From assembly GCA_965262785.1 (NCBI GenBank), contig OZ253559.1, positions 1,819,571-1,883,570 of the forward strand: a DNA stretch of 64,000 nt, given 5' to 3'. Below are positions 2,767-47,181 of the stretch, one piece after another. Made by a program: the position numbers and the translations under genes. Source of the DNA: Rhodothermales bacterium. GTDB taxonomy: Bacteria > Bacteroidota > Rhodothermia > Rhodothermales > Bin80. A model generated the notes under the pieces. That model was not told the DNA's origin. It did not search any database and saw nothing but the letters and a program-made list of their open reading frames with translations. Position 1 is the stretch's first letter; each line of letters opens with the position of its first letter.

Positions 2767-3633
2767 GTGCCCGCTATGAAAAATGTGACCTTGAACCGGA
2801 CGCAACGCGCCGAATTTACGTTAGGGCAGCTTCGCAAGGTCATTGAACGCCCGGCTACTGAGTTGTCGTATGTGGACGAGTACCAGCTCATCGTGGCCGT
2901 GATCCTGTCGGCCCAGTGTACGGATGCACGCGTAAACTTGGTTACGCCGCCCCTGTACGCAGCATTCCCTTCGTTTGCGACACTGGCCAAGGCCGATCCT
3001 ACGGATGTCTTGCCGTATATACGCAGCATCTCCTACCCGAACAACAAGTCGAAGAGTCTTGTTCGGATGGCTCGAATGGTTGTGCGAGAGTACGATGGCC
3101 AGCTGCCTCAAACACAATCGGAGTTGCTGACCCTTCCCGGTGTGGGTCGCAAGACGGCGCAGGTCGTCGCTTCTGTAGCCTTTGGCGACCCGAATGCGCT
3201 ACCGGTAGACACGCATGTATTTAGGGTGGCAAATCGCATAGGGCTGGTAGCAAGCGCACCAACGCCGTTAAAAGTAGAGCGCGGACTCAAGGCCATCCTG
3301 CCGCGAGGCACCTGGGGCGAGGCCCATCACCTGCTGATCCTCCACGGACGATACACATGCACGGCACGCAGCCCCAAGTGCGCCTCCTGTGTGGTAGCAC
3401 CAGCCTGCAGGTACTATGCTTCCGTCCAGGCACTACCAGCACCTATAGAGGGGCTCGACCCGAAGAGTGGCATGTACTACTGCAAGACGCGGCGACACTA
3501 TTTCAATGACATCACCAGCCGAGCTGACCGCTATGGCGTGTCGCAGGCTTCGTGTCCACGGTGCGGGTCCATGAACGTATATCGATCCAAGACCGGGGTT
3601 TCGACCAAGGTCGTGCGCGACTATAGGGTATGA
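2767..3633 (+). CDS. nth: endonuclease III (Nth) with a C-terminal extension of about 70 aa
   Basis: HhH-GPD core with SAQCTD...LPGVGRKTAQVV...VDTHVFRV and a [4Fe-4S] Cys cluster C..C..C..C (CTARSPKCASCVVAPAC). An ATG at 2776 is an alternative start. Confidence 0.85.
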   Translation: MPAMKNVTLNRTQRAEFTLGQLRKVIERPATELSYVDEYQLIVAVILSAQCTDARVNLVTPPLYAAFPSFATLAKADPTDVLPYIRSISYPNNKSKSLVRMARMVVREYDGQLPQTQSELLTLPGVGRKTAQVVASVAFGDPNALPVDTHVFRVANRIGLVASAPTPLKVERGLKAILPRGTWGEAHHLLILHGRYTCTARSPKCASCVVAPACRYYASVQALPAPIEGLDPKSGMYYCKTRRHYFNDITSRADRYGVSQASCPRCGSMNVYRSKTGVSTKVVRDYRV

Positions 3634-3664
3634 CTATCTTTTGCCAGCCACATACAAGTATCGC

Positions 3665-5185
3665 ATGAAGCGAAGTCAGCGTCATATCCTCATCATTCTG
3701 GACGGATACGGGATCGCTGAAGACCCCAGTGTGAGCGCCATTGATAGCGCGTACACGCCGTTTCTGGACCACCTGTTCAATGCATACCCGCATGCAACGC
3801 TGCGTGCCTCTGGCCGCCCGGTGGGGCTGCCGAAGGGCTTGATGGGCAACTCGGAGGTAGGTCATATGAACTTAGGCGCCGGGCGGACTGTGGACCAGGA
3901 GATCACGCGCATTGATTTGGCGATAGAGAGCGGTGCCTTTGTTGATAATAGCGTTCTGCTGCGCGTGGCGCGGCATGCTATGAGTCACAGCAGCACGTTG
4001 CACCTTATGGGGCTGTTTTCCGATGGGGGCGTGCACAGTCACCTGGATCACCTGGTAGCCCTCTGTGAGCTGGCAAGGCGGCAGGGCATTCCCGCGAAGC
4101 GTGTGTGCGTGCATGCCTTTACGGATGGCCGTGACACGGACCCACATGGCGCCCTTGGCTATGCGCAGTCTTTCCAGAAGCGGGCGGGGCACGCTGCGCG
4201 CATCATGAGCGTGATCGGTCGCTACTATGCCATGGACCGCGATCAGCGCTGGGAGCGTACGCGCAAAGCTTTCGACCTTCTGGCTTCGGGCACGGGAAGC
4301 AAATTCAATAGTCCCGCGGCTGCAATGCAGGACAACTACGACCGCGGCATCACGGACGAGTTTATTGAGCCCTGCCTGATCGACTACGGGGACGGCATCT
4401 CCGGGCGCGTTGCTAATAACGACGCTGTGCTCTTTTTTAACTTCCGCGCAGACCGAGCGCGGCAGCTTACTAGTACCTTTACGCTTGAGACGCCCATTCA
4501 GGCCCCCCGCCCGGAGAATCTTCTGTTTGCCACGATGACGCCCTATGACCACAAGTTCGCGTTACCTGTTGTATTTGGGAAGGTGGACTTAAGGCAGACG
4601 CTAGGCGAGGTGCTGTCCGCACGGGGAGCTCGCCAACTGCGTGCGGCCGAGACTGAGAAATACCCGCACGTGACGTACTTCTTCAATGGCGGGCGCGAAA
4701 CGCCTTTCGTCGGCGAGGACCGACTCCTGATCCCTTCGCCCAAGGTTCCTACGTATGATATGCAGCCCGAGATGAGTGCGCCCGAGCTCGCACGTCGCTG
4801 CGCAGAAGCGCTCGCCTCAGAGAAGTATCATTTCGTGTGCGTGAATTTTGCGAACCCGGACATGGTTGGGCATACTGGCGTGTTTGAAGCAGCCGTCAGG
4901 GCTGTGGAGGCTGCCGACACTGCCACGCACACGGTTGTCGAGGCGGCACGTTCGCACGGGTACAGCATCTCCATCCTGGCTGACCATGGTAATGCCGACA
5001 AAATGCGAAATCCAGACGGGAGTCCGCACACCGCGCATACTACCGCACTGGTCCCACACCTCATCATTAAGGATGGCTTCGAAGGTCCCATCAAAGACGG
5101 GAAGCTGGGCGATGTTGCGCCCACCATCCTCGCGCTCTTGGGAGAATCCGCGCCGCCAGAGATGACGGGTGACGTCCTCGTGTAG
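3665..5185 (+). CDS. gpmI: 2,3-bisphosphoglycerate-independent phosphoglycerate mutase
   Basis: ILIILDGYG...GNSEVGHMNLGAGR...ADHGNAD motifs, about 506 aa. The ATG at 3665 is preferred to the upstream TTG at 3641. Confidence 0.9.
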   Translation: MKRSQRHILIILDGYGIAEDPSVSAIDSAYTPFLDHLFNAYPHATLRASGRPVGLPKGLMGNSEVGHMNLGAGRTVDQEITRIDLAIESGAFVDNSVLLRVARHAMSHSSTLHLMGLFSDGGVHSHLDHLVALCELARRQGIPAKRVCVHAFTDGRDTDPHGALGYAQSFQKRAGHAARIMSVIGRYYAMDRDQRWERTRKAFDLLASGTGSKFNSPAAAMQDNYDRGITDEFIEPCLIDYGDGISGRVANNDAVLFFNFRADRARQLTSTFTLETPIQAPRPENLLFATMTPYDHKFALPVVFGKVDLRQTLGEVLSARGARQLRAAETEKYPHVTYFFNGGRETPFVGEDRLLIPSPKVPTYDMQPEMSAPELARRCAEALASEKYHFVCVNFANPDMVGHTGVFEAAVRAVEAADTATHTVVEAARSHGYSISILADHGNADKMRNPDGSPHTAHTTALVPHLIIKDGFEGPIKDGKLGDVAPTILALLGESAPPEMTGDVLV

Positions 5186-28433: not shown

Positions 28434-30499
28434 AAAAGGGTGTACTCCCGCCTGGCTGGCACTACTTTTCTAACGCCTTGCGCCCGCCCTAGTCCTGGCG
28501 CACGTAGCGTTGCCGATGCAGGCTGGGCGTGACGCCGCAGATCCGCGCTATCTGAGCCAGCTCTGCTCTTGGGCGCTCGTCCTGCACGTTGACAATCACT
28601 TGACCTTGGGTGTCCTTTATGGTCGTCATCACCCGCTGCCAGGCGCTCAGCTTCTGGCGAAGCGTCTTCCAGCTGGCGTGGATGCCCTGCGCCTTCAATT
28701 GTGTCCGGATCAGGTGCACGGCGTGATAGGCATACACGGCAATGCTGATGTGCGCCGCGATGCGTGCGTCCTTGCTGTGGTATAGCGGCCGCATCCCCAG
28801 TTCCGACTTCAACGAGCGGAAGGTGGCCTCCACCTCGGACAGCCGCCAATACGTGGCTACAATGTGCTTAAGGTCCCATCCCGTCTGACTGGTGCGCAGC
28901 ACGTAGCCCCCCAGGGCCTCATCGGCCTCTTCCCACTGCGTCTTGCGTGCAAACTTCACGGCCTTGGCGTTGGGGCCACTCCCTTCTACAACCGTCACTT
29001 CGTACTGATGAGATACGCGGGCATATCGCTCTTTTATGCGTCCGACCTGCTCTACGACCTTCTTGAGCCGCTTGGTATGGTAGGGCTTCTGCAGCCCTTC
29101 GTGCAGCGAGGTGAGGGCTGCTTCCAGTAGCGTGCGCCGGCGCTGGAGGATCTGCTCTTCCTTGTGCTTTCTGGCTTCGCTGACGGCATAGAGCAGCATC
29201 TCCTGCTTCTTTTGCTGCAACTGCCACACGCGTACGGCGTGTCCAGCCTGCGTGGTCAGCGTACTGTCGGGCTCCCGCTCTGGCGGCAGGGGCCGCTTAC
29301 CCCGGTGTACGCAGATCCAGTCGTAGCCCTGTTCTGCCAGCCAGGACACGTTTGCTTCCGTAGCGATCCCTGCATCCATGACCACCGTCGGCTTCTGGCC
29401 GTCCACGCTGGCGTTCAGACGCTCGATAGCGTCCTGCAGCGTGCCGGGCTCCGAGACGTTGCCGGGCAAGATCTCGCAGGTGCGCGGGAAGCCCGCGCCA
29501 TCGAGCACCAGCCCGAGCGTCACCAGCGGACAATCGGAACGCTTTTGCTTCGAACGTCCATAGGCCAGGTACTCGCCGTGCTGTCGGCCATGGTAATGGG
29601 TGTTGGTCAGGTCATAAAAAACAACGGTCTCCGGCAGGCTCAAGAGCGTCCGCTCCTTTTGGAAGAGCGCTTGCTGAATCGCTTGGTTGTGCTCCCAGAG
29701 CAGGTCCCCAATGCGATACAGCTTCGCTAACGACACTTTCCTGCCGGGGCGCAGCCCCAGCAGGTCCAGCGTCGTCGACCTGCTTTGCAACCACTGAAGC
29801 GTAGCCCGTTCGCTGTTGGGATGCAGCATGCGTGCGACCACCAGCGCTACGGCCAGGCGCGCGTCGCGCTCCTTGGCACCGGCCTGGATCAGCGTGTCTT
29901 TCAGTCCCAGATCCTCAAGCGCCTGAAGGCAGACGCGCTCTGCGCCCACGCTGCGAGCATGCTCCGGGTGCTCAAGGGAGTCCATGTCCACCGTCATGAC
30001 GCTGTCAGGCTCACCCTCCGGCTTCGCGTGTGCACCTATGCCGCGTGCGCGTAGCTGCGCGACAATGGCTTCGGCGGTGTGCTGCAGGTCGGGATCGAAC
30101 ACGAGCGTCGGCTGCCCCTGCAACAAATTCTCTATGTGAAGCACCAAGGTGCCCCACTGGTCACGGGGCGTGTCAAAGTGGACGCCCAGGTTCAGCAGGG
30201 TCGACTGGCGCACCTTCCCGCCGATGCGGTCGCTGCGTACCAGGCGGTAGCTGTGTCGCGCTTCACCTTTCTTTGCGTGGGTCTTGGTCGCCCGTATGTA
30301 CATGGTGTCTGCAGGTCAATGCCGACTCCAAGATAGTGCATGGGCGCACCTGTAGCAAGTCCCCACCAACAATCCTGGCACTACAATGGCCTTTTTCAGC
30401 CGAATACGCTAAACTTCACGTATTCTTCACCATATAGCCGAGAAATACGGCTGAAAAGCGGCTGAAAAGGGCGAAAAGTGGGCTGGGAGTACCTGGTTT
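28434..30499 (-). mobile_element. IS1634-type insertion sequence nested in the 3' part of ISNCY copy 1 (ends approximate)
   Basis: Imperfect inverted ends AAA.GGGTGTACTCCCGCC (about 28434-28452) and GGCTGGGAGTACCTGGTTT (30481-30499). I could not identify a TSD. Confidence 0.55.
28489..30303 (-). CDS. IS1634-family transposase
   Basis: 604 aa. The N-terminus MYIRATKTHAKKGEARHSYRLVRSDRIGGKVRQSTLLNLG is the typical IS1634-family opening, followed by a DDE region. Confidence 0.7.
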   Translation of the reverse strand: MYIRATKTHAKKGEARHSYRLVRSDRIGGKVRQSTLLNLGVHFDTPRDQWGTLVLHIENLLQGQPTLVFDPDLQHTAEAIVAQLRARGIGAHAKPEGEPDSVMTVDMDSLEHPEHARSVGAERVCLQALEDLGLKDTLIQAGAKERDARLAVALVVARMLHPNSERATLQWLQSRSTTLDLLGLRPGRKVSLAKLYRIGDLLWEHNQAIQQALFQKERTLLSLPETVVFYDLTNTHYHGRQHGEYLAYGRSKQKRSDCPLVTLGLVLDGAGFPRTCEILPGNVSEPGTLQDAIERLNASVDGQKPTVVMDAGIATEANVSWLAEQGYDWICVHRGKRPLPPEREPDSTLTTQAGHAVRVWQLQQKKQEMLLYAVSEARKHKEEQILQRRRTLLEAALTSLHEGLQKPYHTKRLKKVVEQVGRIKERYARVSHQYEVTVVEGSGPNAKAVKFARKTQWEEADEALGGYVLRTSQTGWDLKHIVATYWRLSEVEATFRSLKSELGMRPLYHSKDARIAAHISIAVYAYHAVHLIRTQLKAQGIHASWKTLRQKLSAWQRVMTTIKDTQGQVIVNVQDERPRAELAQIARICGVTPSLHRQRYVRQD

Positions 30500-36841: not shown

Positions 36842-37332
36842 CTACTGCCTGGACCGTATGACTACTTGCGGCGCCGAACCTCTTTCTTGTCTCACGCGGA
36901 CGATCATGTCTCGTTCCGTGACGTATCCAATGTAGCCATGTCCGATGTGCGTAAATGCGCCGCTGAGTGCATCGACCCGGAATACGAAGTGGCGCCACAG
37001 CTCGTCGCCGAGTGACCTTGAGACACCCAGATAGAAATTGCCATCGCTGTATGCTTCCGACAGGGTGAGGTGTCCACGACCCTTTTCCTTGGCGTCGGCA
37101 ACAGTGTAGCGGATTGACGGACGGCCATTCTCCGACATCGATTCCAGGGTGTTGATGGCTGGCTTGACGCCCACTACCCTGAGGTGCCAAAGTAAATCGC
37201 CATGTTCACTGTAGGCCGTCACAACCGGTATGTTGTCCCGGATATGTCCGACAACGCCGTGCTGCGCAATGCACGAAAGCGATCCGCCGCTGGACAGCCG
37301 TTCGACAACCATTGAATTTGTCGATTTGTAGG
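36842..37332 (-). pseudogene. beta-propeller (NHL/6-bladed type) gene, 3' segment (1 of 3)
   Basis: It aligns with the C-terminal third of the intact paralogue 45838..47181 (ERLSSGGSLSC.. against RALLSDGPLGC..). It joins in frame to 39824..39992 when the IS256-type element is removed. Confidence 0.8.
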
Positions 37333-37347
37333 GGTGGTGCGCCATTC

Positions 37348-38640
37348 TCAGTTGGTGGAAGGCGTCCTCAGTAGCGTGGAGGTAGTATTCAATTGTGCTG
37401 TGCAACTTATGTGTTCATGTAAAGCCATGCGTAGCTTCGGAAGATGCTCTGCTTGGGGAATCCGCTGCAAGTTACGAAGGGATTCCATGGCCCCCAGCGC
37501 CATCCACCGTTGAATCTGATCCGAGTGCATCCAGTGCGTCACGTTGTGGAAGAGGCGACTGAAGGCACTGTTCAGGTTCTCGATGCTGTTGGTAGTTCGC
37601 AAGCTTCGGCCCAGCGGTTTGGCCAGTCCGAGTTGATGCAGCTTCAGTGTCTCTTCCATGCCCTCCGCGAGACTCGAGGCAGCCTTGGGTGCGCTGGTCT
37701 TCAACGTCTCTTGGATCATCGTCAGCGCAGCCTTGGCCTCCGCGTAAGTGGGCTTTCGATAGGCCGCCTGCAGACGCTTACGCCAGTGATCCTGATCCTC
37801 TTTGTTCAGATGAGCCACCACGTTTTCTTGCTTGTGCCAGCAGCAGCGCTGAATGAGCGCGTACTTTCCAAAGACTTTGTCTACAGCCGCGTGTATGCCC
37901 TTGGACCCATCCACCATGCAGAGCAGTCCTTGCTGGAAGCGTAGCCCACGGGCAATCAGGGCTTCCAGAAGCCCCTGGATGGCCTCGGTATTCTCCGAAG
38001 GTACCTGCGCAAACCCCAGTACTACCTTCTCGCCGGTAAGGGTCAGCCCCATGACGACCATCATCTGGTACTTCGCAAAGTGCTTGCCGTCGATCCACAG
38101 GCCCACCAGGTCCAGGCTGTCCAGCCGACGCTCAAAGAACGCTTCCAGCGTCTGGGCGCCACGCTTGATAAACCTGCGCCGGACCGAGGTCGCACTCAGA
38201 CCAAAGGCCTCGGCAAACTGCCGGGCGGCCCGCTGGTAGTTGCGCTGGCTGATTCCCATGAGCAACATCTCGGTCAGCTTTTCATCATCTACCTTCGTGC
38301 TGCGAAGTCGTTGGTAACTCTCAAGGGGGCGCGCCTTGTTCGTGCGGGTGTCGTGCACGCGCGGCACGCGGATGCGTACCCGCTGCCCCCACAGTCGGAT
38401 GGACCCTGGATTGTAGCCCCAGCGCAGGTAACGCCCCTGGTGCGGCCTGTGGCGTCTGCTGCGGTAAGTTCCGCAAAGCGCAGCTACCTCGTCACTGATG
38501 ATCTGCAAGGCCATGTGCTGGATAAACGTGCCGATGTTCAGCACCGCGTTGATTTTCGCCTGCATGCTGCACGGGCTGAAGGCACGCATGAGCTCTCCGA
38601 AGAGGTCCAAAGGAAAAGAAGCGGTGGTAGGGGTCTTCAT
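37348..38640 (-). CDS. IS256/Mutator-family transposase with an intact DDE
   Basis: 430 aa with LWIDGKH, MVDGSKGI, QRCCWHKQEN and TTNSIENLN signatures. The stop codon lies inside the left IR. Confidence 0.85.
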   Translation of the reverse strand: MKTPTTASFPLDLFGELMRAFSPCSMQAKINAVLNIGTFIQHMALQIISDEVAALCGTYRSRRHRPHQGRYLRWGYNPGSIRLWGQRVRIRVPRVHDTRTNKARPLESYQRLRSTKVDDEKLTEMLLMGISQRNYQRAARQFAEAFGLSATSVRRRFIKRGAQTLEAFFERRLDSLDLVGLWIDGKHFAKYQMMVVMGLTLTGEKVVLGFAQVPSENTEAIQGLLEALIARGLRFQQGLLCMVDGSKGIHAAVDKVFGKYALIQRCCWHKQENVVAHLNKEDQDHWRKRLQAAYRKPTYAEAKAALTMIQETLKTSAPKAASSLAEGMEETLKLHQLGLAKPLGRSLRTTNSIENLNSAFSRLFHNVTHWMHSDQIQRWMALGAMESLRNLQRIPQAEHLPKLRMALHEHISCTAQLNTTSTLLRTPSTN

Positions 38641-38655
38641 AGGTACAAGGGTGGA

Positions 38656-39750
38656 TTAGCATTCAGTAGTACGTTCGCCGAAGAGGGTATTGCGAAGGCG
38701 CGCAAGGTATGCAGCGTGGGCCAGACGGTACAGGCCTGTTTCCATTTCCAGCAGTCCCAGGGCCATGCACGCCTCGCGCTGCTCCGGTGGCATCCACCGG
38801 GCATACTGCCTCAAGCGTGTGACTAAGCGTTGGCTGACACGGCCAATCACGCTGGTGGTCTTAAGGCTCCGACCCAGGGCGGCAAAGACTCCGGCCCGGT
38901 GCAAGGTCAGCGTCTGCTTGAGCCCCTCCTTCAGGCAGCAGCCCGCGGTGCGGTTCTCGCGGGCCACCGTGCTGTGCACACGCATCAGCGCCCGTAGGGC
39001 CGTCTCGTAGTCGGCTGCCTCCCACGCGTGACGCAAAGCGCAGCGCACCTCCAGACGCTTCTCCTCGGGCAGATAGCTCAGCACACGCCGGGTCTTTTGC
39101 ACCTGGCACCGTTGCACCTGGGCGGAATCGGCCAGGCGGGTCGCGAGTGCCTCGCAGAGGCCGCTTCCCCCCGGGATCACGCACAAGATTCCTCGCTCCG
39201 TGCAAAGCCCCCGCTCGGTGAGCTGCTGCAGCATCCGACTCAGAAGTGCGGCGTCCTCCAGCGACGAAGCTACAAAGCTCAGGATCCGTCTGTGTCCCGT
39301 CATCGTAGCGCCTATGCAGAAGACATACTGCGTGCCCAGGACATAGGCGGCGTCGATCCACAACGCCCCGAAGTCGTCCTGTGACAATGGCCGAGTAGTG
39401 AATACTTCCAGGGCCCGCTCCGCGTGGGCTGACACCAAAGGGTCCAGTGGCTGCGCACCAGAAGGCGCGAGCTTCGGCCCCTCCCGCGTGGATACGCAGC
39501 TCGCACAGCAGGTACACGCTGCGGTATCGGCGCTGGCTACAGGCGCTTCCAGTTCCAGACCATCAGCCCCGCCTGCATTGGCGCGCTCATGCCGCGCTGC
39601 CCCCTCTCGGCCGAGCAACTCCATGATCTCGCTGAACTGCCTGACCAGGTAGAGACGCCAGTCACCAGAGGCGCGCAGATCAGCGCCAGAGACGCTGTCA
39701 AGATGGGTGGGATGCGTGTGTAGTCCGTGCATAGAAAGCAGAATAGACAT
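38656..39750 (-). CDS. IS256/Mutator-family transposase paralogue lacking the second Asp and the Glu of the DDE triad
   Basis: It is collinear with the 37348..38640 product over about 230 aa (LWIDAAY, RGL, QRC, LGRSLKTT, MALG). However it has VIPGGSGL, QRCQVQ and TTSVIGRVS at the catalytic positions. A start at 39732 is also possible. Confidence 0.7.
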   Translation of the reverse strand: MSILLSMHGLHTHPTHLDSVSGADLRASGDWRLYLVRQFSEIMELLGREGAARHERANAGGADGLELEAPVASADTAACTCCASCVSTREGPKLAPSGAQPLDPLVSAHAERALEVFTTRPLSQDDFGALWIDAAYVLGTQYVFCIGATMTGHRRILSFVASSLEDAALLSRMLQQLTERGLCTERGILCVIPGGSGLCEALATRLADSAQVQRCQVQKTRRVLSYLPEEKRLEVRCALRHAWEAADYETALRALMRVHSTVARENRTAGCCLKEGLKQTLTLHRAGVFAALGRSLKTTSVIGRVSQRLVTRLRQYARWMPPEQREACMALGLLEMETGLYRLAHAAYLARLRNTLFGERTTEC

Positions 39751-39815
39751 ATGTGGAAAATGACTCCATCATCTAACTGTTTCTGCCTTTTAACAACTAA
39801 GAATGGTGCACCGCC

Positions 39816-39992
39816 TTTGTAGGGCTCGCCAAATCCCGTTACATACTTTCCGTCTACTGTGTACTTGTGAACGATGCGGCCATTCTCCGGGCCGTATCCC
39901 AGCAGGTATACGTGGCTACGCATGACGCAGGCATCGCTTGGCCTGATCCGGGTATCCCAGGACTCTACATACCTATACACCCCCTTATCTAG
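39816..39992 (-). pseudogene. beta-propeller gene, middle segment (2 of 3)
   Basis: It encodes LDKGVYRYVESWDTRIRPSDACVMRSHVYLLGYGPENGRIVHKYTVDGKYVTGFGEP. This aligns with PKALCVIGDQLFFSGDWPVRPNDAVHVFDLSGEHLRSFGAT of the paralogue. Confidence 0.8.
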
Positions 39993-41899
39993 TGCTTGCC
40001 CGAAAAATGCCTGATCGGCTCTGCAGACCGGCAGTCTTGGGCGCATAGGGCGGATGTACGGGCGCGTGCGGCGGAAAATCGGGCATTTTGGAGTGTCGAG
40101 CGGCTGTTATCGGGGCAGTTTCCCCAACGGCTGCCTGCGTTGTTTTAGCGAATGTTGCGCCGTTTTCCGATCTTAGTACCGTTATTGGCGTGATTAGTAC
40201 GCTTCTGCCCCAACATTCGCCCGATTTACTGCCATGCGCGCGATCTTCGAGTCACAGTTTGAGCTTGGCCACACTCCCATTGGAGAGATCAGCTTTGACG
40301 CTCGGTCCAGAGACGATATTCCGGCCGTACTCCGTGGACTGCAGGACATCTTCACGCACCGCGAGACCCGCGAGCGGGTGTTCGCGATTCTGCGGGAGCA
40401 GTTAGGCGCGAAGGTCAATTTGCGGCGTGGTCGCCCCGGGCTGTGTCTGTGGCGGATCTTCGTGCTGGGCACGCTGCAGAAGGCGCTTGACTGCGACTTC
40501 GACCGTCTGGTGGAATTGGCGAACTTTCACACGGCGTTGCGCCAGATGCTGGGGCATGCAGATTTTGGAGATAAGCACCAGTATCGCCTGCAGACCGTTA
40601 TTGACAACGTGCGTCTGCTTACCGAGGAGGCGCTGCAGCAGATCAATGCGGTGGTGGTGGCCCGTGGGCATCAGCTGTTGAAGCACAGAAACTCGGATCC
40701 GCTTCACTGCCGGGCCGACTCAGCGGTTGCGAAGACCCATGTGGAGTGGCCCACCGATGTCCGTTTGCTGTGGGATGCGCTGCGCCGTCTGATCAGGAAG
40801 CTGGCGCGTCTTTGCCAGCAGCATGCGATAGCGGGCTGGCGCAAGTCGCAGGCCTGGATCAAGAAAATGGAGCGCGCCTTTTATCGCGTGCGCACTTCCC
40901 GGCAGTGGCGTAGTACGTCGAAAGTGGCAAACTACCTGGCACTTTGCCGCACTATCGTGTCGAAGGCAGCGGCCACGCAGGCGATATTGAGGCAAAACGA
41001 TGTTGAAAGCGCGGAGGTGTCGTGGTATTTGCGGACTGCGGACAAGCTGATAGACCAGGTATTGCGCCGTTTGATCAAGGGCGAGAAGATTCCGCACGGC
41101 CAGAAGCTCTTCTCCGTGCATGAGCCCCACACGCGCTGGATCGACAAAGGGAAGGCGGGCGTGATGGCAGAGTTGGGGGTACCGGTCTGCGTGCTGGAGG
41201 ATCAGCACCAATTCATTCTGCGCCACTACGTGCAACACGAAGGTGGCGACCAGGACATGATCGTACCATTCCTTGCAGAGGCGAAGCGGCGCTACCCGGC
41301 GCTGGCATCATGCAGCATGGACAAGGGGTTTTACACGCCAGAGAATCGCGAGCAGCTTGACAAGTTGTTGGACCTGAACGTGATGCCCCGGAAGGGGCGG
41401 CACCGTAAAGCGGACCGCGAACGGGAGACCCATCCGGACTTCGTGGCAGCCCGGCGTCAACACCCGGCCGTAGAGTCGGCGATCAATAACCTCCATCACC
41501 GGGGCATGTCACTAGTGCGCACCCACGGCAAGGCTGGCTTCGACAGGACGCTGGCGCTGGTAGTGGTGGCCACCAATGTGCACCGCATAGGTCAGGTCCT
41601 GAAGCAGAAGGAAGCGCGCCGACGAAAGTGGCACCAGGCACGCAGTAGGGCGCAGTAAGGCCCTACCAGCGCCGCCACGGAAGCAAGCCAGACTCCTTGC
41701 AATGGGGAGAGCGCAAACCTATATCCTCTTTGTAGTGCAATGGCATAAAAAGCTGGCTGAAGACCACGGATTTGTGCCGAATCCACTCATATTCGGGGGC
41801 TGCACACCTTGCGTACACCCCTGACCGCGACTACAGGCTTACCGCCCACCCCCAATCTGCCGGCATATTGCTCCCAATAGGCCTTTTTCGGGCAATCAC
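39993..41899 (+). mobile_element. ISNCY-type insertion sequence, copy 2 (1907 bp)
   Basis: IR-L is TGCTTGCCCGAAAAATGCCT at 39993. IR-R ends ...AGGCCTTTTTCGGGCAATCAC at 41899. The 6-7-bp TSD TATCTAG lies at 39986-39992 and 41900-41906. Confidence 0.8.
40234..41658 (+). CDS. DDE transposase, ISNCY-type
   Basis: 474 aa and a paralogue of 26740..28173. Confidence 0.65.
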   Translation: MRAIFESQFELGHTPIGEISFDARSRDDIPAVLRGLQDIFTHRETRERVFAILREQLGAKVNLRRGRPGLCLWRIFVLGTLQKALDCDFDRLVELANFHTALRQMLGHADFGDKHQYRLQTVIDNVRLLTEEALQQINAVVVARGHQLLKHRNSDPLHCRADSAVAKTHVEWPTDVRLLWDALRRLIRKLARLCQQHAIAGWRKSQAWIKKMERAFYRVRTSRQWRSTSKVANYLALCRTIVSKAAATQAILRQNDVESAEVSWYLRTADKLIDQVLRRLIKGEKIPHGQKLFSVHEPHTRWIDKGKAGVMAELGVPVCVLEDQHQFILRHYVQHEGGDQDMIVPFLAEAKRRYPALASCSMDKGFYTPENREQLDKLLDLNVMPRKGRHRKADRERETHPDFVAARRQHPAVESAINNLHHRGMSLVRTHGKAGFDRTLALVVVATNVHRIGQVLKQKEARRRKWHQARSRAQ

Positions 41900-42398
41900 T
41901 ATCTAGCCACTCAAACACATCTACCTCACGTTCGGCGCGACCCGCGATCAGTATGCGGTCGCCGCCATCATCAACTAGAATGTGCGAGGGATGCATGAAT
42001 TCGCCAGGTCCCTCGCCCGCACTACCGAATCTGCCCAAGTACTGTGCCTCGGTATCGATGACATGTACGGTCTTGACACGTGAGGCCGCGTCCAAGACGA
42101 AGATGGATCCATGTCCGTCGGAGGCAATGTCCTGGATAAGGCCTAGAAGTTCGTACAATTCGCCGTCCTCGCGCCCGAAAATCGCTGTCTTCATTCCGGT
42201 AGTATCCGGTACAGGAGGTCCTTCCTCCCACTGATCATTGTCGGATACGTCAATGATCAGACTGGGGTCAGTGGCGTCTGGAATGTTCTCTGGTGTCGGG
42301 TGTTGTGTACCCCGATTCACCTGACCGGCTGCGCTCCGGGTCCCCAGCGGTTGGCTCAGCAGGCAAAAAAGACACAGCGTGCTCCAAGCCGTATTCAA
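41900..42398 (-). pseudogene. beta-propeller gene, 5' segment (3 of 3), with signal peptide
   Basis: MNTAWSTLCLFCLLSQPLG.. signal. GSAGEGPGEFMHPSHILVDDGGDRILIAG matches GAPGEGPGEFQYPQAVYIDIRDRVFVVD of the paralogue. Confidence 0.8.
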
Positions 42399-44218: not shown

Positions 44219-44998
44219 TTAGAGCACCAGGCGCATCAACTGGTCGACGGTCAGCGCCAGGATGCCGAACATCAGGTGGCAGTAGACCTTGCTATGCCCG
44301 CGTACCCGCACATACCGTCCGCCGAACTCGTCTTTGAGTCGTCCATTGACCCGCTCCACCGTCGAGCGCTCTCTGAAACGTCTCCTCTCTGGCGTAACGT
44401 GTCCGATGCTGCGTTGCGCCCGCGCCTCGCGCTTTAGCTCCTCATTGCCACGCGGGTTGATATCAATGATCGGCACATGCCCCAGCGATCTGCTATGCTC
44501 TCGGATTTCCTTAGCATCGTACGCACTGTCCATCAAGTCGTACAGACTTTGTACCCGAGCGGCCGTCATCACTGCCAGCGGGATCGCCACCTGGCTGTCA
44601 TGGACCGAAGCCGATGTTAGCGCAGCGCTGATCGGAATCCCCCCGTCAATCACATCCAAGTGCAGCTTGAAGCCGACCCAGCAGTGCCCGTGACCCTTCG
44701 AATTGCGTTTGGTCCCGACATTGCAGTCCTTCGGCAGTTCTTCCAGCATATCATCCAGCTCCATGGAGCGTTGACGCTGCAGGCGGGTAGGGGTTTTCGG
44801 TTGTTTGCCGTCGTTGGCCTTGGGCACAGACCGCTTCGGCTTCTCGCGTGCCGGAATCGCGGTCGCGTCCCGCGAAACGTGCCCGGCCAGATGATCCTCC
44901 AGCGCGCACTCCAGCAGCACTGCGTGCAGCCGCCCCGGCAGGTCACTGTTGGCAAATTCCGCGAACGCCCGCGAAAACGACGATTCGCTCGGTACCAT
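44219..44998 (-). CDS. IS5-type transposase, DDE catalytic part
   Basis: It starts at an ATG immediately after the TAG, in the same frame. PSESSFSRAFAEFA..., DSAYD and ERVNGRLKDEFG signatures are present. Confidence 0.65.
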   Translation of the reverse strand: MVPSESSFSRAFAEFANSDLPGRLHAVLLECALEDHLAGHVSRDATAIPAREKPKRSVPKANDGKQPKTPTRLQRQRSMELDDMLEELPKDCNVGTKRNSKGHGHCWVGFKLHLDVIDGGIPISAALTSASVHDSQVAIPLAVMTAARVQSLYDLMDSAYDAKEIREHSRSLGHVPIIDINPRGNEELKREARAQRSIGHVTPERRRFRERSTVERVNGRLKDEFGGRYVRVRGHSKVYCHLMFGILALTVDQLMRLVL

Positions 44999-45837: not shown

Positions 45838-47181
45838 GTGGACCAACTTTGTCTCTTGTGGAATTGCGCTGGAGGGCTGACACCTACGGGCGGGCAGTCC
45901 GGCTTCGTGGAAAACCTGTCGGATGGCGGCGTCTTGAGTTCACCAGTTGTGACTGCGCATGACGTCGTGGCCAGCCAGGAAGCTGGTCACGTCCACTGGC
46001 GGACATCAAGGAGTAGCTACATCAGCTCGTACTCGCTAGTCCGGGTAGGGCTACTTTCCCTTTTGTTCCTTGTGCTGCTAGGCTGCGGAGACAGCAACAC
46101 ATCGGGCCGCATCTATCACCCGACACCAGATGCCATACCATCGCCTGATGCGCTAGCCCACATCATCAAATACACAGATGTTGCCAGCATTGATGTGGAG
46201 ATGCAGTACATTGCTCGGTTGGTCGGGGACGCGCGTCAAGTTGCTACTATCGGTGTTGATCAGGGTCCTCGCCATGCTATGCTGGGCGAAGTTCGGAGTG
46301 TAGCGCTAAGCAGTGCAGGCGACGTGTTCCTATTGGACAGCAAACATAGAGAGTTGTTTGTATATGGTCCGACGGGGCAATATCGTTACACGATCGGGGC
46401 GCCTGGTGAGGGGCCCGGTGAATTTCAGTATCCGCAAGCGGTGTACATAGATATACGTGATCGCGTCTTTGTGGTGGATCGCAAGGGGGGTCGCATCTCT
46501 GTTTTTGCAAGTTCTGATTCCACGCATTCACTGGTGTCTACTTCGTCGGTAGGCTTCACACCGAAGGCACTATGTGTGATTGGCGATCAACTGTTTTTTA
46601 GCGGAGACTGGCCTGTTCGGCCGAATGATGCCGTCCACGTCTTTGATTTAAGCGGCGAGCATTTGCGCTCTTTTGGAGCGACCTATTCGTCTCCTGCTGC
46701 GCATGTTCGGGCGCTTTTGTCAGATGGCCCACTTGGTTGCCACCCCGATAGTAAAGCGCTGGTATACATGTTTTCGCGCTTACCACTACTGTATGGCTAT
46801 GAAGTCACTGGGGGCTCTCTGTGGACTTCCATGTTTGGAGATTTTAGTCCTGGGGACATCATCGAAGAAGGGCGTGGCAGTGATTCCGAGATGGTATTGT
46901 TTGGTTCCGGCGGGAGAGAGTATGACCGTGCAAGCAACGTATTCCATGTATCGGACCATTTCTTCATTGTCCAAACAAGACACATCATTCCACGAACCAC
47001 GACCCAGGACAAGTCCGAAACTTATCACACCTATGTGGTTAACGGTAAGACGGGGCAAGCCATGTACATAGGCACGGAGTTGCATCGCATCCTTGCGGTT
47101 AAGTCGGGGATGATAGTGACCTATGGAAGGGCTCGCTTCCCCCAAGTTCACATTCACGAGATGGTGAATTGGGGGCTTTGA
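45838..47181 (+). CDS. 6-bladed beta-propeller (NHL-like) lipoprotein, intact paralogue
   Basis: Lipobox LLSLLFLVLLGCGDS and the GAPGEGPGEFQYPQAVYID blade motif. The true start is probably downstream (for example the GTG at 45967), because the first 60 or so codons do not look like coding sequence. Confidence 0.65.
   Translation: MDQLCLLWNCAGGLTPTGGQSGFVENLSDGGVLSSPVVTAHDVVASQEAGHVHWRTSRSSYISSYSLVRVGLLSLLFLVLLGCGDSNTSGRIYHPTPDAIPSPDALAHIIKYTDVASIDVEMQYIARLVGDARQVATIGVDQGPRHAMLGEVRSVALSSAGDVFLLDSKHRELFVYGPTGQYRYTIGAPGEGPGEFQYPQAVYIDIRDRVFVVDRKGGRISVFASSDSTHSLVSTSSVGFTPKALCVIGDQLFFSGDWPVRPNDAVHVFDLSGEHLRSFGATYSSPAAHVRALLSDGPLGCHPDSKALVYMFSRLPLLYGYEVTGGSLWTSMFGDFSPGDIIEEGRGSDSEMVLFGSGGREYDRASNVFHVSDHFFIVQTRHIIPRTTTQDKSETYHTYVVNGKTGQAMYIGTELHRILAVKSGMIVTYGRARFPQVHIHEMVNWGL

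Follow-up and report, generated by a model that had tools for sequence, protein, structure and literature searches.

Organization of the two-gene element

The window analyzed here is a 64,000-nucleotide stretch of the genome of a Rhodothermales bacterium (GenBank assembly GCA_965262785.1, contig OZ253559.1, positions 1,819,571 to 1,883,570), in which an insertion sequence (IS) of the IS256 family, 2,483 bp long, occupies positions 37333-39815 of the minus strand and carries two transposase-like genes. The downstream gene (37348-38640, minus strand) encodes a canonical IS256-family DDE transposase (TnpA) of 430 amino acids (aa), matched by Pfam PF00872 and NCBIfam transpos_IS256, and its stop codon falls within the right inverted repeat. 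The upstream gene lies on the same strand, separated from the former by a 15-nt spacer (38641-38655). Its open reading frame (ORF) extends to position 39750 (364 aa); the gene itself probably starts at Met7, the start point of all its homologues, which places it at 38656-39732 with a product of 358 aa. This product is a catalytically dead paralogue of the transposase, termed here the pseudo-transposase.

The limits of the element were set by a repeat search, which found imperfect terminal inverted repeats of 31 nt (25/31 positions, 81%), the longest inverted pair in the region 37200-39950. The left repeat (39785-39815, minus strand; GGCGGTGCACCATTCTTAGTTG... on the gene strand) is located upstream of the dead gene and pairs with the right repeat (37333-37363, minus strand); the repeat core GGTGCNCCATTCTNAGTTG was present at these two ends only in the 64-kb window, the chance expectation being 0.2 matches. 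Reading of the sequence directly outside both arms revealed the 8-bp target-site duplication TTTGTAGG, with one copy at the gene-proximal (left) end (39816-39823) and an identical one at 37325-37332. An initial annotation, made from the sequence alone, had described repeats of about 31 bp and an 8-bp duplication enclosing both ORFs, and we recovered the same coordinates.

The ORF listing and the repeat scan also agreed with that annotation in that both ORFs lie on one strand, 15 nt apart, with no internal inverted repeat: scanning with the repeat core gave no repeat-like site between the two genes, a terminator scan gave no terminator-like site in 38641-38655, and no second copy of the element was found in the 64-kb window. 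A sigma-70 scan detected no promoter on the gene strand, although the sigma-70 model says little for this phylum. A nested or tandem pair of ISs was considered and rejected, as the repeat core is present at the two outer ends only and the genes are 15 nt apart or, in other lineages, overlapping.

The upstream protein has lost its catalytic residues

The two proteins share 31% identity over 245 ungapped residues (E = 3e-37), and both belong to the Mutator family as initially annotated, although they match its profiles very differently. The downstream protein matched PF00872 (Transposase_mut) with 107 bits (cut-off 21; E = 1e-30) over profile positions 31-367, whereas the upstream protein matched it with E = 4e-20 over positions 141-368 only. 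The NCBIfam model transpos_IS256, with a cut-off of 150 bits, accepted the downstream protein (213 bits) and rejected the upstream one (115 bits), the match of the latter beginning at model position 105. No Pfam or NCBIfam match was obtained for the N-terminal 109 residues of the upstream protein, which the initial annotation had described as collinear with its neighbour but different in its N-terminal region.

Alignment with canonical relatives assigned the catalytic columns of the downstream protein to D184, D244, C266-x-x-H269 and E354, confirming the catalytic motifs it had been said to keep. The same columns of the upstream protein hold D, P, C, Q and G; of the D/D/E triad and the CxxH histidine, the first Asp alone is kept. 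The initial annotation was thus right about the retention of the first Asp and the changes of His to Gln and Glu to Gly, but not about the second Asp, which it read as Gly and which is actually Pro (VIPGG aligned with MVDGS).

An AlphaFold2 model of the upstream protein was built on a 105-sequence alignment, with a predicted local distance difference test score (pLDDT) of 85.5 overall and ~98 over residues ~100-360; a long N-terminal helix (residues 31-59) scored 75-87, and the linker (residues 62-95) was predicted to be disordered. Foldseek searches with this model returned the ISCth4 TnpA structures 6xgx, 6xgw and 6xg8 as the best matches in the PDB (probability 1.0, ~270 columns), and the downstream protein matched 6xg8 by its sequence (E = 2e-10). 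In ISCth4 the dimerisation domain covers residues 1-56, the HTH residues 108-165, and the catalytic domain, which is RNase-H-like, carries a four-helix insertion at residues 261-325; the catalytic residues are D175, D241 and E348, and the His of CxxH is expected to contact the scissile phosphate (PMC7780238). According to the model, the upstream protein keeps the RNase-H-like catalytic fold together with the four-helix insertion; as judged from its profile matches, which begin no earlier than the end of the HTH, it is without the NDB and most of the HTH.

The N-terminal helix sits where the dimerisation helices lie, with the canonical motif D-T-R-L-A-L-I-Q-A corresponding to D-W-R-L-x-L-V-x-Q in the dead proteins, a shared form D-x-R-L-x-L-(V/I)-x-Q. 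A local hhalign comparison of the N-termini gave a weak match (P = 6e-4, probability 29%; reversed control P = 0.07), and the global comparison was uninformative (probability 3%). At the level of sequence, this analysis shows a protein that should be incapable of DDE chemistry and that lacks the end-recognition domains.

Copies and lineages of the element

A near-identical copy of the element is that of locus L054 (ERZ25069191), which contains the same 2,483-bp unit with 3 differences (99.88% identity) at an unrelated site and is flanked by its own 8-bp duplication, GTTATTCT; an exact look-up of the window upstream protein gave no match, and a cluster member led to this copy. L001, on a 1.9-Mb contig, is 79% identical in DNA to the window element throughout the unit; its genes encode 360 and 430 aa, its spacer is likewise 15 nt long, and it is flanked by an 8-bp duplication of its own, CCGACCGT. 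L005 and L008 are further members of the L001 lineage, the latter located on the Rhodothermales chromosome OZ244626.1 and having an in-frame stop in its transposase gene. A more distant lineage, formed by L002 and L006, displays protein identities of ~51-53% for the upstream and 58-61% for the downstream product, with the genes 43 nt apart in L002 and overlapping by 8 nt in L006.

A further lineage (~45-50% identity) was found in the Rhodothermales metagenome-assembled genome (MAG) CATQHT01, with a unit of 2,463 bp and genes overlapping in ATGA (4 nt). At least 7 full-length copies (91-99% identity) are present, besides several disrupted ones; both ORFs are intact in 5 of these 7, and copies L009 and L012 are flanked by clean 9-bp duplications, CATGGGCAC and TGGGTTCAG, respectively. 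The terminal motif GG(C/T)GGTG...TAGT(T/G)G is common to the left ends of the window element, L001, L002, L006, L007 and L008. Moreover, in L042, which belongs to group B, a second subgroup of the dead paralogues, both genes lie between inverted repeats that match perfectly over 30 bp, with the 8-bp duplication ATGAAACA around them. A scan of metagenome contigs for group B gave five loci in which the downstream DNA was visible and intact; a canonical transposase gene follows the dead gene after 25-59 nt in four of them (L043-L046), and a 1.8-kb gap separates the two in L049. Across lineages the spacing of the genes is therefore +15, +43, +25, +59 or about +400 nt, with overlaps of 4 and 8 nt. 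All the named relatives come from Rhodothermales MAGs.

Among the copies and lineages examined, no element with the same ends carries one gene only, be it the downstream gene alone or any other. Solo dead genes at L010, L017 and L052 turned out to be copies disrupted by other ISs or through deletions, and the Vicinamibacterales loci L022-L036, candidates from a genome scan, were discarded as ordinary single-gene IS256 transposases. An intact upstream ORF is found in lineages with as little as 45% identity, and two-gene copies have their own duplications at L054, L001, L009, L012 and L042, bearing out the earlier claim of a single mobile unit. The segment is one active IS256-family insertion sequence of a two-gene subgroup.

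The near-identical copy of L054 lies next to ORFs for group II intron-type reverse transcriptases, which a DDE_Tnp_1 transposase interrupts (positions 1-2930 of that locus), a further pile-up of mobile elements. Many of the two-gene copies of CATQHT01 (L010, L017, L020, L021, L025 and L018) are themselves interrupted, including an IS30-like element at the transposase gene start in L010, a 2.1-kb insertion in L018 and a truncation beside a WD40 gene in L017, which points to heavy IS-on-IS traffic. In L042 a relaxase (TraI-type) gene (positions 1-912 of that locus) adjoins the two-gene element, so this copy may be located on a conjugative element or plasmid. Finally, L003 (positions 3310-4056) contains a dead-gene fragment (74% identity, first ~184 residues), probably the remnant of an insertion, beside a cluster of BrxC/BrxD-type and DEAD-helicase genes that is a candidate defence locus.

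A family of dead paralogues

Word-indexed protein searches yielded few relatives of the dead type; 1.84 billion representative proteins were instead searched exhaustively with a profile, the catalytic columns being read in the best 150 matches. Besides many canonical IS256 transposases, this search returned a set of proteins of ~330-360 aa whose core begins at residue ~85-100, and among the best 150 matches ~19-21 clusters (50% identity) are without both the second Asp and the Glu. With the exception of one marginal IS1249 match in a single member, transpos_IS256 was the sole NCBIfam model to match the dead proteins.

In an alignment of 13 members, the second-Asp column is occupied by P, S, A or G, and the Glu column is never Glu, its residues being G, T, A, V, H, L, N and, in one member, Asp; both the second Asp and the Glu are thus absent from their columns in 13 of 13 aligned members, and the structure model bears out their absence. 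The CxxH histidine is kept in some members and lost in others, and the first Asp is often but not always retained. All 13 share the same layout, an N-terminal amphipathic helix with the motif (W/L)R-x-x-L(L/V)-x-(Q/H), then a low-complexity linker, and then the core. Intact dead ORFs of 345-360 aa occur across lineages down to 30-45% identity, and conservation across the dead groups extends to the Trp-bearing loop II region and to an Arg-rich RLRxxxxW(M/L)PP motif. A CxxC motif (residues 76-79 of the 358-aa protein) is invariant in the linker of the group A dead paralogues and absent from groups B and C; zinc binding by this motif was rejected, as it is confined to group A and lies in a linker that is predicted to be disordered and evolves almost neutrally.

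Selection and history of the dead gene

The ratio of non-synonymous to synonymous substitution rates (dN/dS) was calculated between the window element and L001, a pair with unsaturated synonymous sites (dS ~0.56), and 95% intervals were obtained from 300 codon bootstraps. The values were 0.31 (0.24-0.41) for the upstream gene overall and 0.25 (0.19-0.32) for the downstream gene; when only the cores were considered, the dead one gave 0.22 (0.15-0.33) and the active one 0.20 (0.13-0.29). The upstream N-terminal helix displayed a value of 0.40 (0.18-0.84) and the upstream linker one of 0.85 (0.40-2.08). None of the 300 bootstrap replicates of the upstream gene reached 1, and although synonymous sites are saturated in more distant pairs, the ratios there were similar. 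By this measure of codon substitution, the dead core is shown to be under purifying selection as strong as that acting on the active enzyme.

A different pattern was seen among the near-identical CATQHT01 copies (L007, L009, L011, L012 and L016), in which the dead gene has 24 non-synonymous and 12 synonymous variants and the transposase gene 12 and 13, respectively. The excess in the dead gene may reflect relaxed constraint in very recent copies, too few sites, or long-read errors.

In a neighbour-joining tree of 236 core columns, the dead paralogues form one clade with 99-100% bootstrap, and within group A, to which the window element belongs, the dead genes and the transposase genes have identical topologies, (L007,((window,L001),(L002,L006))). 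One dead clade and matching topologies indicate that the dead gene has a single old origin and, as far as its sequence tells, has travelled with its partner transposase and co-diverged with it since. The dead core is 30-33% identical to that of its own partner and 37-40% identical to those of single-gene relatives; being closer to the latter, it could have arisen either by tandem duplication or by capture from a second lineage. The nearest single-gene relatives of the partner transposases that were examined have 48-49% identity and are ordinary elements, one of them from Salinibacter ruber.

Host gene and neighbouring insertion sequences

Removal of the two-gene element and one copy of the duplication restores exactly the reading frame of a host gene, as had been proposed, and because of this exact restoration the insertion is considered recent. 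The 3' part of this gene, a DUF5128-like beta-propeller paralogue, lies at 36842-37332 (minus strand) and joins in frame with a middle part at 39824-39989 (minus strand), which is enclosed between two ISs; the remaining part (41904-42398, minus strand) lies beyond the second one. The latter is an ISNCY-family element (39990-41901), which lies ~170 bp from the two-gene element and splits the same host gene. Its transposase (40234-41658, plus strand) scored 410 bits on NCBIfam transpos_ISNCY_1, its imperfect inverted repeats of 52 nt are located at 39990-40041 and 41850-41901, and the flanking direct repeat is TATCTAG.

When both ISs are removed, the three parts (36842-37332, 39824-39989 and 41904-42398, minus strand) form an ORF of 402 codons. 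This ORF had no Pfam or NCBIfam match; nevertheless, it is collinear across both junctions with an intact paralogue ~6 kb away, a DUF5128-type six-bladed beta-propeller protein encoded at 45838-47181 on the plus strand (27% identity, E = 2e-21). Two further DDE_Tnp_1 (IS4/IS5-type) transposase genes, at 28489-30303 and 44219-44998 (both minus strand), make this region of the window rich in ISs.

Proposed role of the pseudo-transposase

The Tn5 inhibitor (Inh) and the KP repressor of the P element are transposase variants without the end-binding N-terminus, which poison the enzyme through mixed oligomers, and in IS1 and IS3 a regulator is encoded upstream of the transposase. By analogy with these systems, we propose that the pseudo-transposase could be a built-in trans-acting modulator of TnpA, acting as a negative or timing regulator, and we assign to this proposal a probability of about 0.45. 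The initial annotation had suggested that it could be a regulatory, targeting or scaffold subunit. The two proteins would be made together, coupled by re-initiation at the 15-nt gap or the ATGA overlap, with the upstream one at least as abundant and probably in excess. The pseudo-transposase would then bind TnpA through its N-terminal helix and the surfaces of the catalytic domain. The DNA-bound ISCth4 transposase is an asymmetric dimer, in which protomer A grips the end through the NDB, the HTH and two loops of the catalytic domain, while the NDB of protomer B is disordered and its active site works in trans (PMC7780238). Since one protomer grips the end and the other catalyses in trans, a mixed dimer would be bound to the end through TnpA and yet remain chemically silent, the dead core occupying the place of the trans-acting active site. 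The frequency of transposition may be set in this way by the titration of TnpA into inactive or delayed complexes, following the logic of Tn5 Inh by means of a separate paralogous gene.

Several observations weigh against this proposal. The N-terminal helix resembles the dimerisation helix weakly (hhalign probability 29%), and the gene order, with the regulator first as in IS1 and IS3, is an analogy only. A core of 250 residues conserved like that of the enzyme is not obviously needed by an inhibitor acting only via a dimerisation helix, and a structural subunit would explain such conservation no less well than a regulator. The elements are successful, one genome having at least 7-12 copies, and any inhibition must accordingly be mild. 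As for the history of the gene, non-synonymous variants exceed synonymous ones (24:12) in the dead gene of the near-identical CATQHT01 copies, and in a neighbour-joining tree of 236 columns fast-evolving dead sequences could attract each other artificially.

The helper subunits IstB, MuB and TnsC are encoded by genes located downstream of the transposase. A less probable explanation than the modulator, though one to be taken seriously, is that the dead protein is needed for transposition, as an obligate non-catalytic subunit: an asymmetric dimer or oligomer would have been split by duplication into active and architectural paralogues, both required, with the dead one filling those places of the transpososome that need the catalytic fold and the DNA-bending loops but not the chemistry, as outer integrase subunits do in intasomes and the PgmL proteins beside PiggyMac. 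A dead core under the same degree of constraint as the active one (dN/dS 0.22 and 0.20, respectively), the conservation across the dead groups of the loop II region with its Trp and of the RLRxxxxW(M/L)PP motif, the tight translational coupling implied by overlaps of 4 and 8 nt, a pairing that is stable through deep divergence with matching topologies, and the proliferation of the elements all agree with this view, as does the structure of ISCth4, in which one protomer's catalytic domain serves purely to shape the DNA, through loops I and II (PMC7780238). Nevertheless, lacking the NDB and the HTH, the dead protein is unfit for the end-binding protomer position of the ISCth4 structures, and without an active site it is unfit for the other one as well; relatives of the partner transposase from single-gene elements (48-49% identity) manage alone, and the established helpers mentioned above have the opposite gene order.

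It is rather unlikely that the dead paralogue acts on the DNA or the host instead of TnpA, as a promoter repressor, a factor of target choice or immunity, or a protector of the circle junction, through the DNA surfaces retained in its catalytic domain. The conserved basic motifs of the core and the invariant CxxC of the group A linker are compatible with such a role, and the resemblance of its N-terminus to the dimerisation helix is too insignificant to require heterodimerisation; however, the sequence-specific DNA-binding domains are exactly the part that was lost, groups B and C have no CxxC, and the linker that bears it in group A is predicted to be disordered and is nearly neutral, and the duplications TTTGTAGG, GTTATTCT, CCGACCGT and ATGAAACA display no target-site pattern. 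Much less probable still is a decaying relic, that is, an older IS256 copy overrun or captured by a newer one, whose ORF would be a hitch-hiking pseudogene. Such a fate would account for the loss of the catalytic residues, for a score under the NCBIfam family cut-off and for the frameshifted or truncated copies L014, L019, L052, L010 and L017, but not for ORFs of 345-360 aa that stay intact down to 30-45% identity, nor for a dN/dS of 0.31 with 0/300 bootstraps reaching 1, a monophyletic clade co-diverging with its partner, and the recurrence of the same substitutions at the catalytic columns; there are, moreover, no internal repeats, nor room for any, and the conservation of the gene refutes this reading. 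We give almost no credit to a reading in which a programmed frameshift or read-through joins the two ORFs into a single transposase, as happens in ISMich2, IS1 and IS3: although the 15-nt spacer puts them in one frame both in the window and in L001, each ORF has a complete catalytic and insertion domain, a duplication of content by which the reading is refuted, and the spacing varies between lineages with no conserved frame relation.

Comparison with known systems

IS256-family elements are textbook one-gene insertion sequences, bacterial relatives of the eukaryotic Mutator transposons, and are described in ISfinder as having imperfect terminal inverted repeats of ~24-41 bp. Copy-out/paste-in transposition by way of a circular intermediate is a further trait of the family. 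Our element resembles the members of this family, such as IS256 itself and ISCth4 (PDB 6XG8/6XGW/6XGX), in that its downstream gene passes the curated model and has the DDE and CxxH residues, in its repeats of ~31 bp starting with GG and in the duplications of 8-9 bp; the cores of both proteins have the fold of ISCth4 TnpA. It differs from them in size, since its lineages measure 2.46-2.8 kb and not ~1.3-1.5 kb, and in the presence of a second, dead paralogue gene upstream of tnpA; the window element and all the related lineages examined depart from the IS256 pattern of a single ORF in ~1.2-1.5 kb. A 2014 survey of prokaryotic Mutator-like transposases, which reported target duplications of 8-9 bp for the family, found only a simple IS organization among 109 IS256-family elements, with two ORFs in ISMich2 alone, where a -1 frameshift rebuilds one transposase (PMC3942029). 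ISMich2, IS1 and IS3 are similar to our element in having two consecutive ORFs on the same strand of one IS, the upstream product being likely a regulator, but their ORFs are successive parts of a transposase, whereas each ORF of the window element has a full catalytic region, with no conserved frame relation between the two.

As with Tn5 Inh, the pseudo-transposase lacks the end-binding N-terminal domains while keeping the rest of the fold, is encoded by the same element as the enzyme and is probably made in excess. Inh, however, is an alternative product of the transposase gene itself and keeps the catalytic residues; the pseudo-transposase is a separate, ancient paralogue (~30% identity) in which these are destroyed, and any inhibition by it is only putative. 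A catalytically dead paralogue or a non-catalytic protomer stands beside an active enzyme in the PiggyMac/PgmL system of Paramecium and in the outer subunits of retroviral intasomes. These cases share with ours a dead partner of transposase fold, kept by selection alongside an active enzyme, although the PgmL proteins are domesticated host genes and the outer subunits of intasomes are identical subunits of a homomer, whereas the pseudo-transposase, whose interaction with TnpA is putative, resides inside a mobile bacterial IS. Two-protein transposition modules are also found inside IS21 (IstA/IstB), Mu (A/B) and Tn7 (TnsB/TnsC); there the helpers, which have no relation to the transposase and are encoded downstream of it, are AAA+ ATPases, and here the second protein is a dead paralogue encoded upstream.

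A full-text literature search, which did not extend to ISfinder entries, gave no description of a two-gene IS256 element or of a dead paralogue. We rate the conserved pseudo-transposase gene as new, the family and its chemistry being already known. The finding adds a new element architecture to the IS256 family, a subgroup of ~20 protein clusters (50% identity) distributed in Rhodothermales genomes and several metagenomes, each of whose members has a dead paralogue conserved under selection. IS-finding tools that expect 1.3-1.5 kb probably mis-delimit such elements, and annotation pipelines score the upstream protein under the cut-off. These elements represent, moreover, a natural experiment on the asymmetric transpososome of ISCth4, bearing on which of the protomer jobs are possible without chemistry and without end recognition, and they offer an example from bacteria of a selfish element in which an active enzyme is accompanied by a pseudo-enzyme paralogue. 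Whether this would amount to a novel mode of self-regulation or to a novel type of heteromeric transposase depends on the direction in which the pseudo-transposase acts; if the obligate heteromer were true, the element would stand as the first IS to depend, for its transposition, on a catalytically dead copy of the transposase it encodes.

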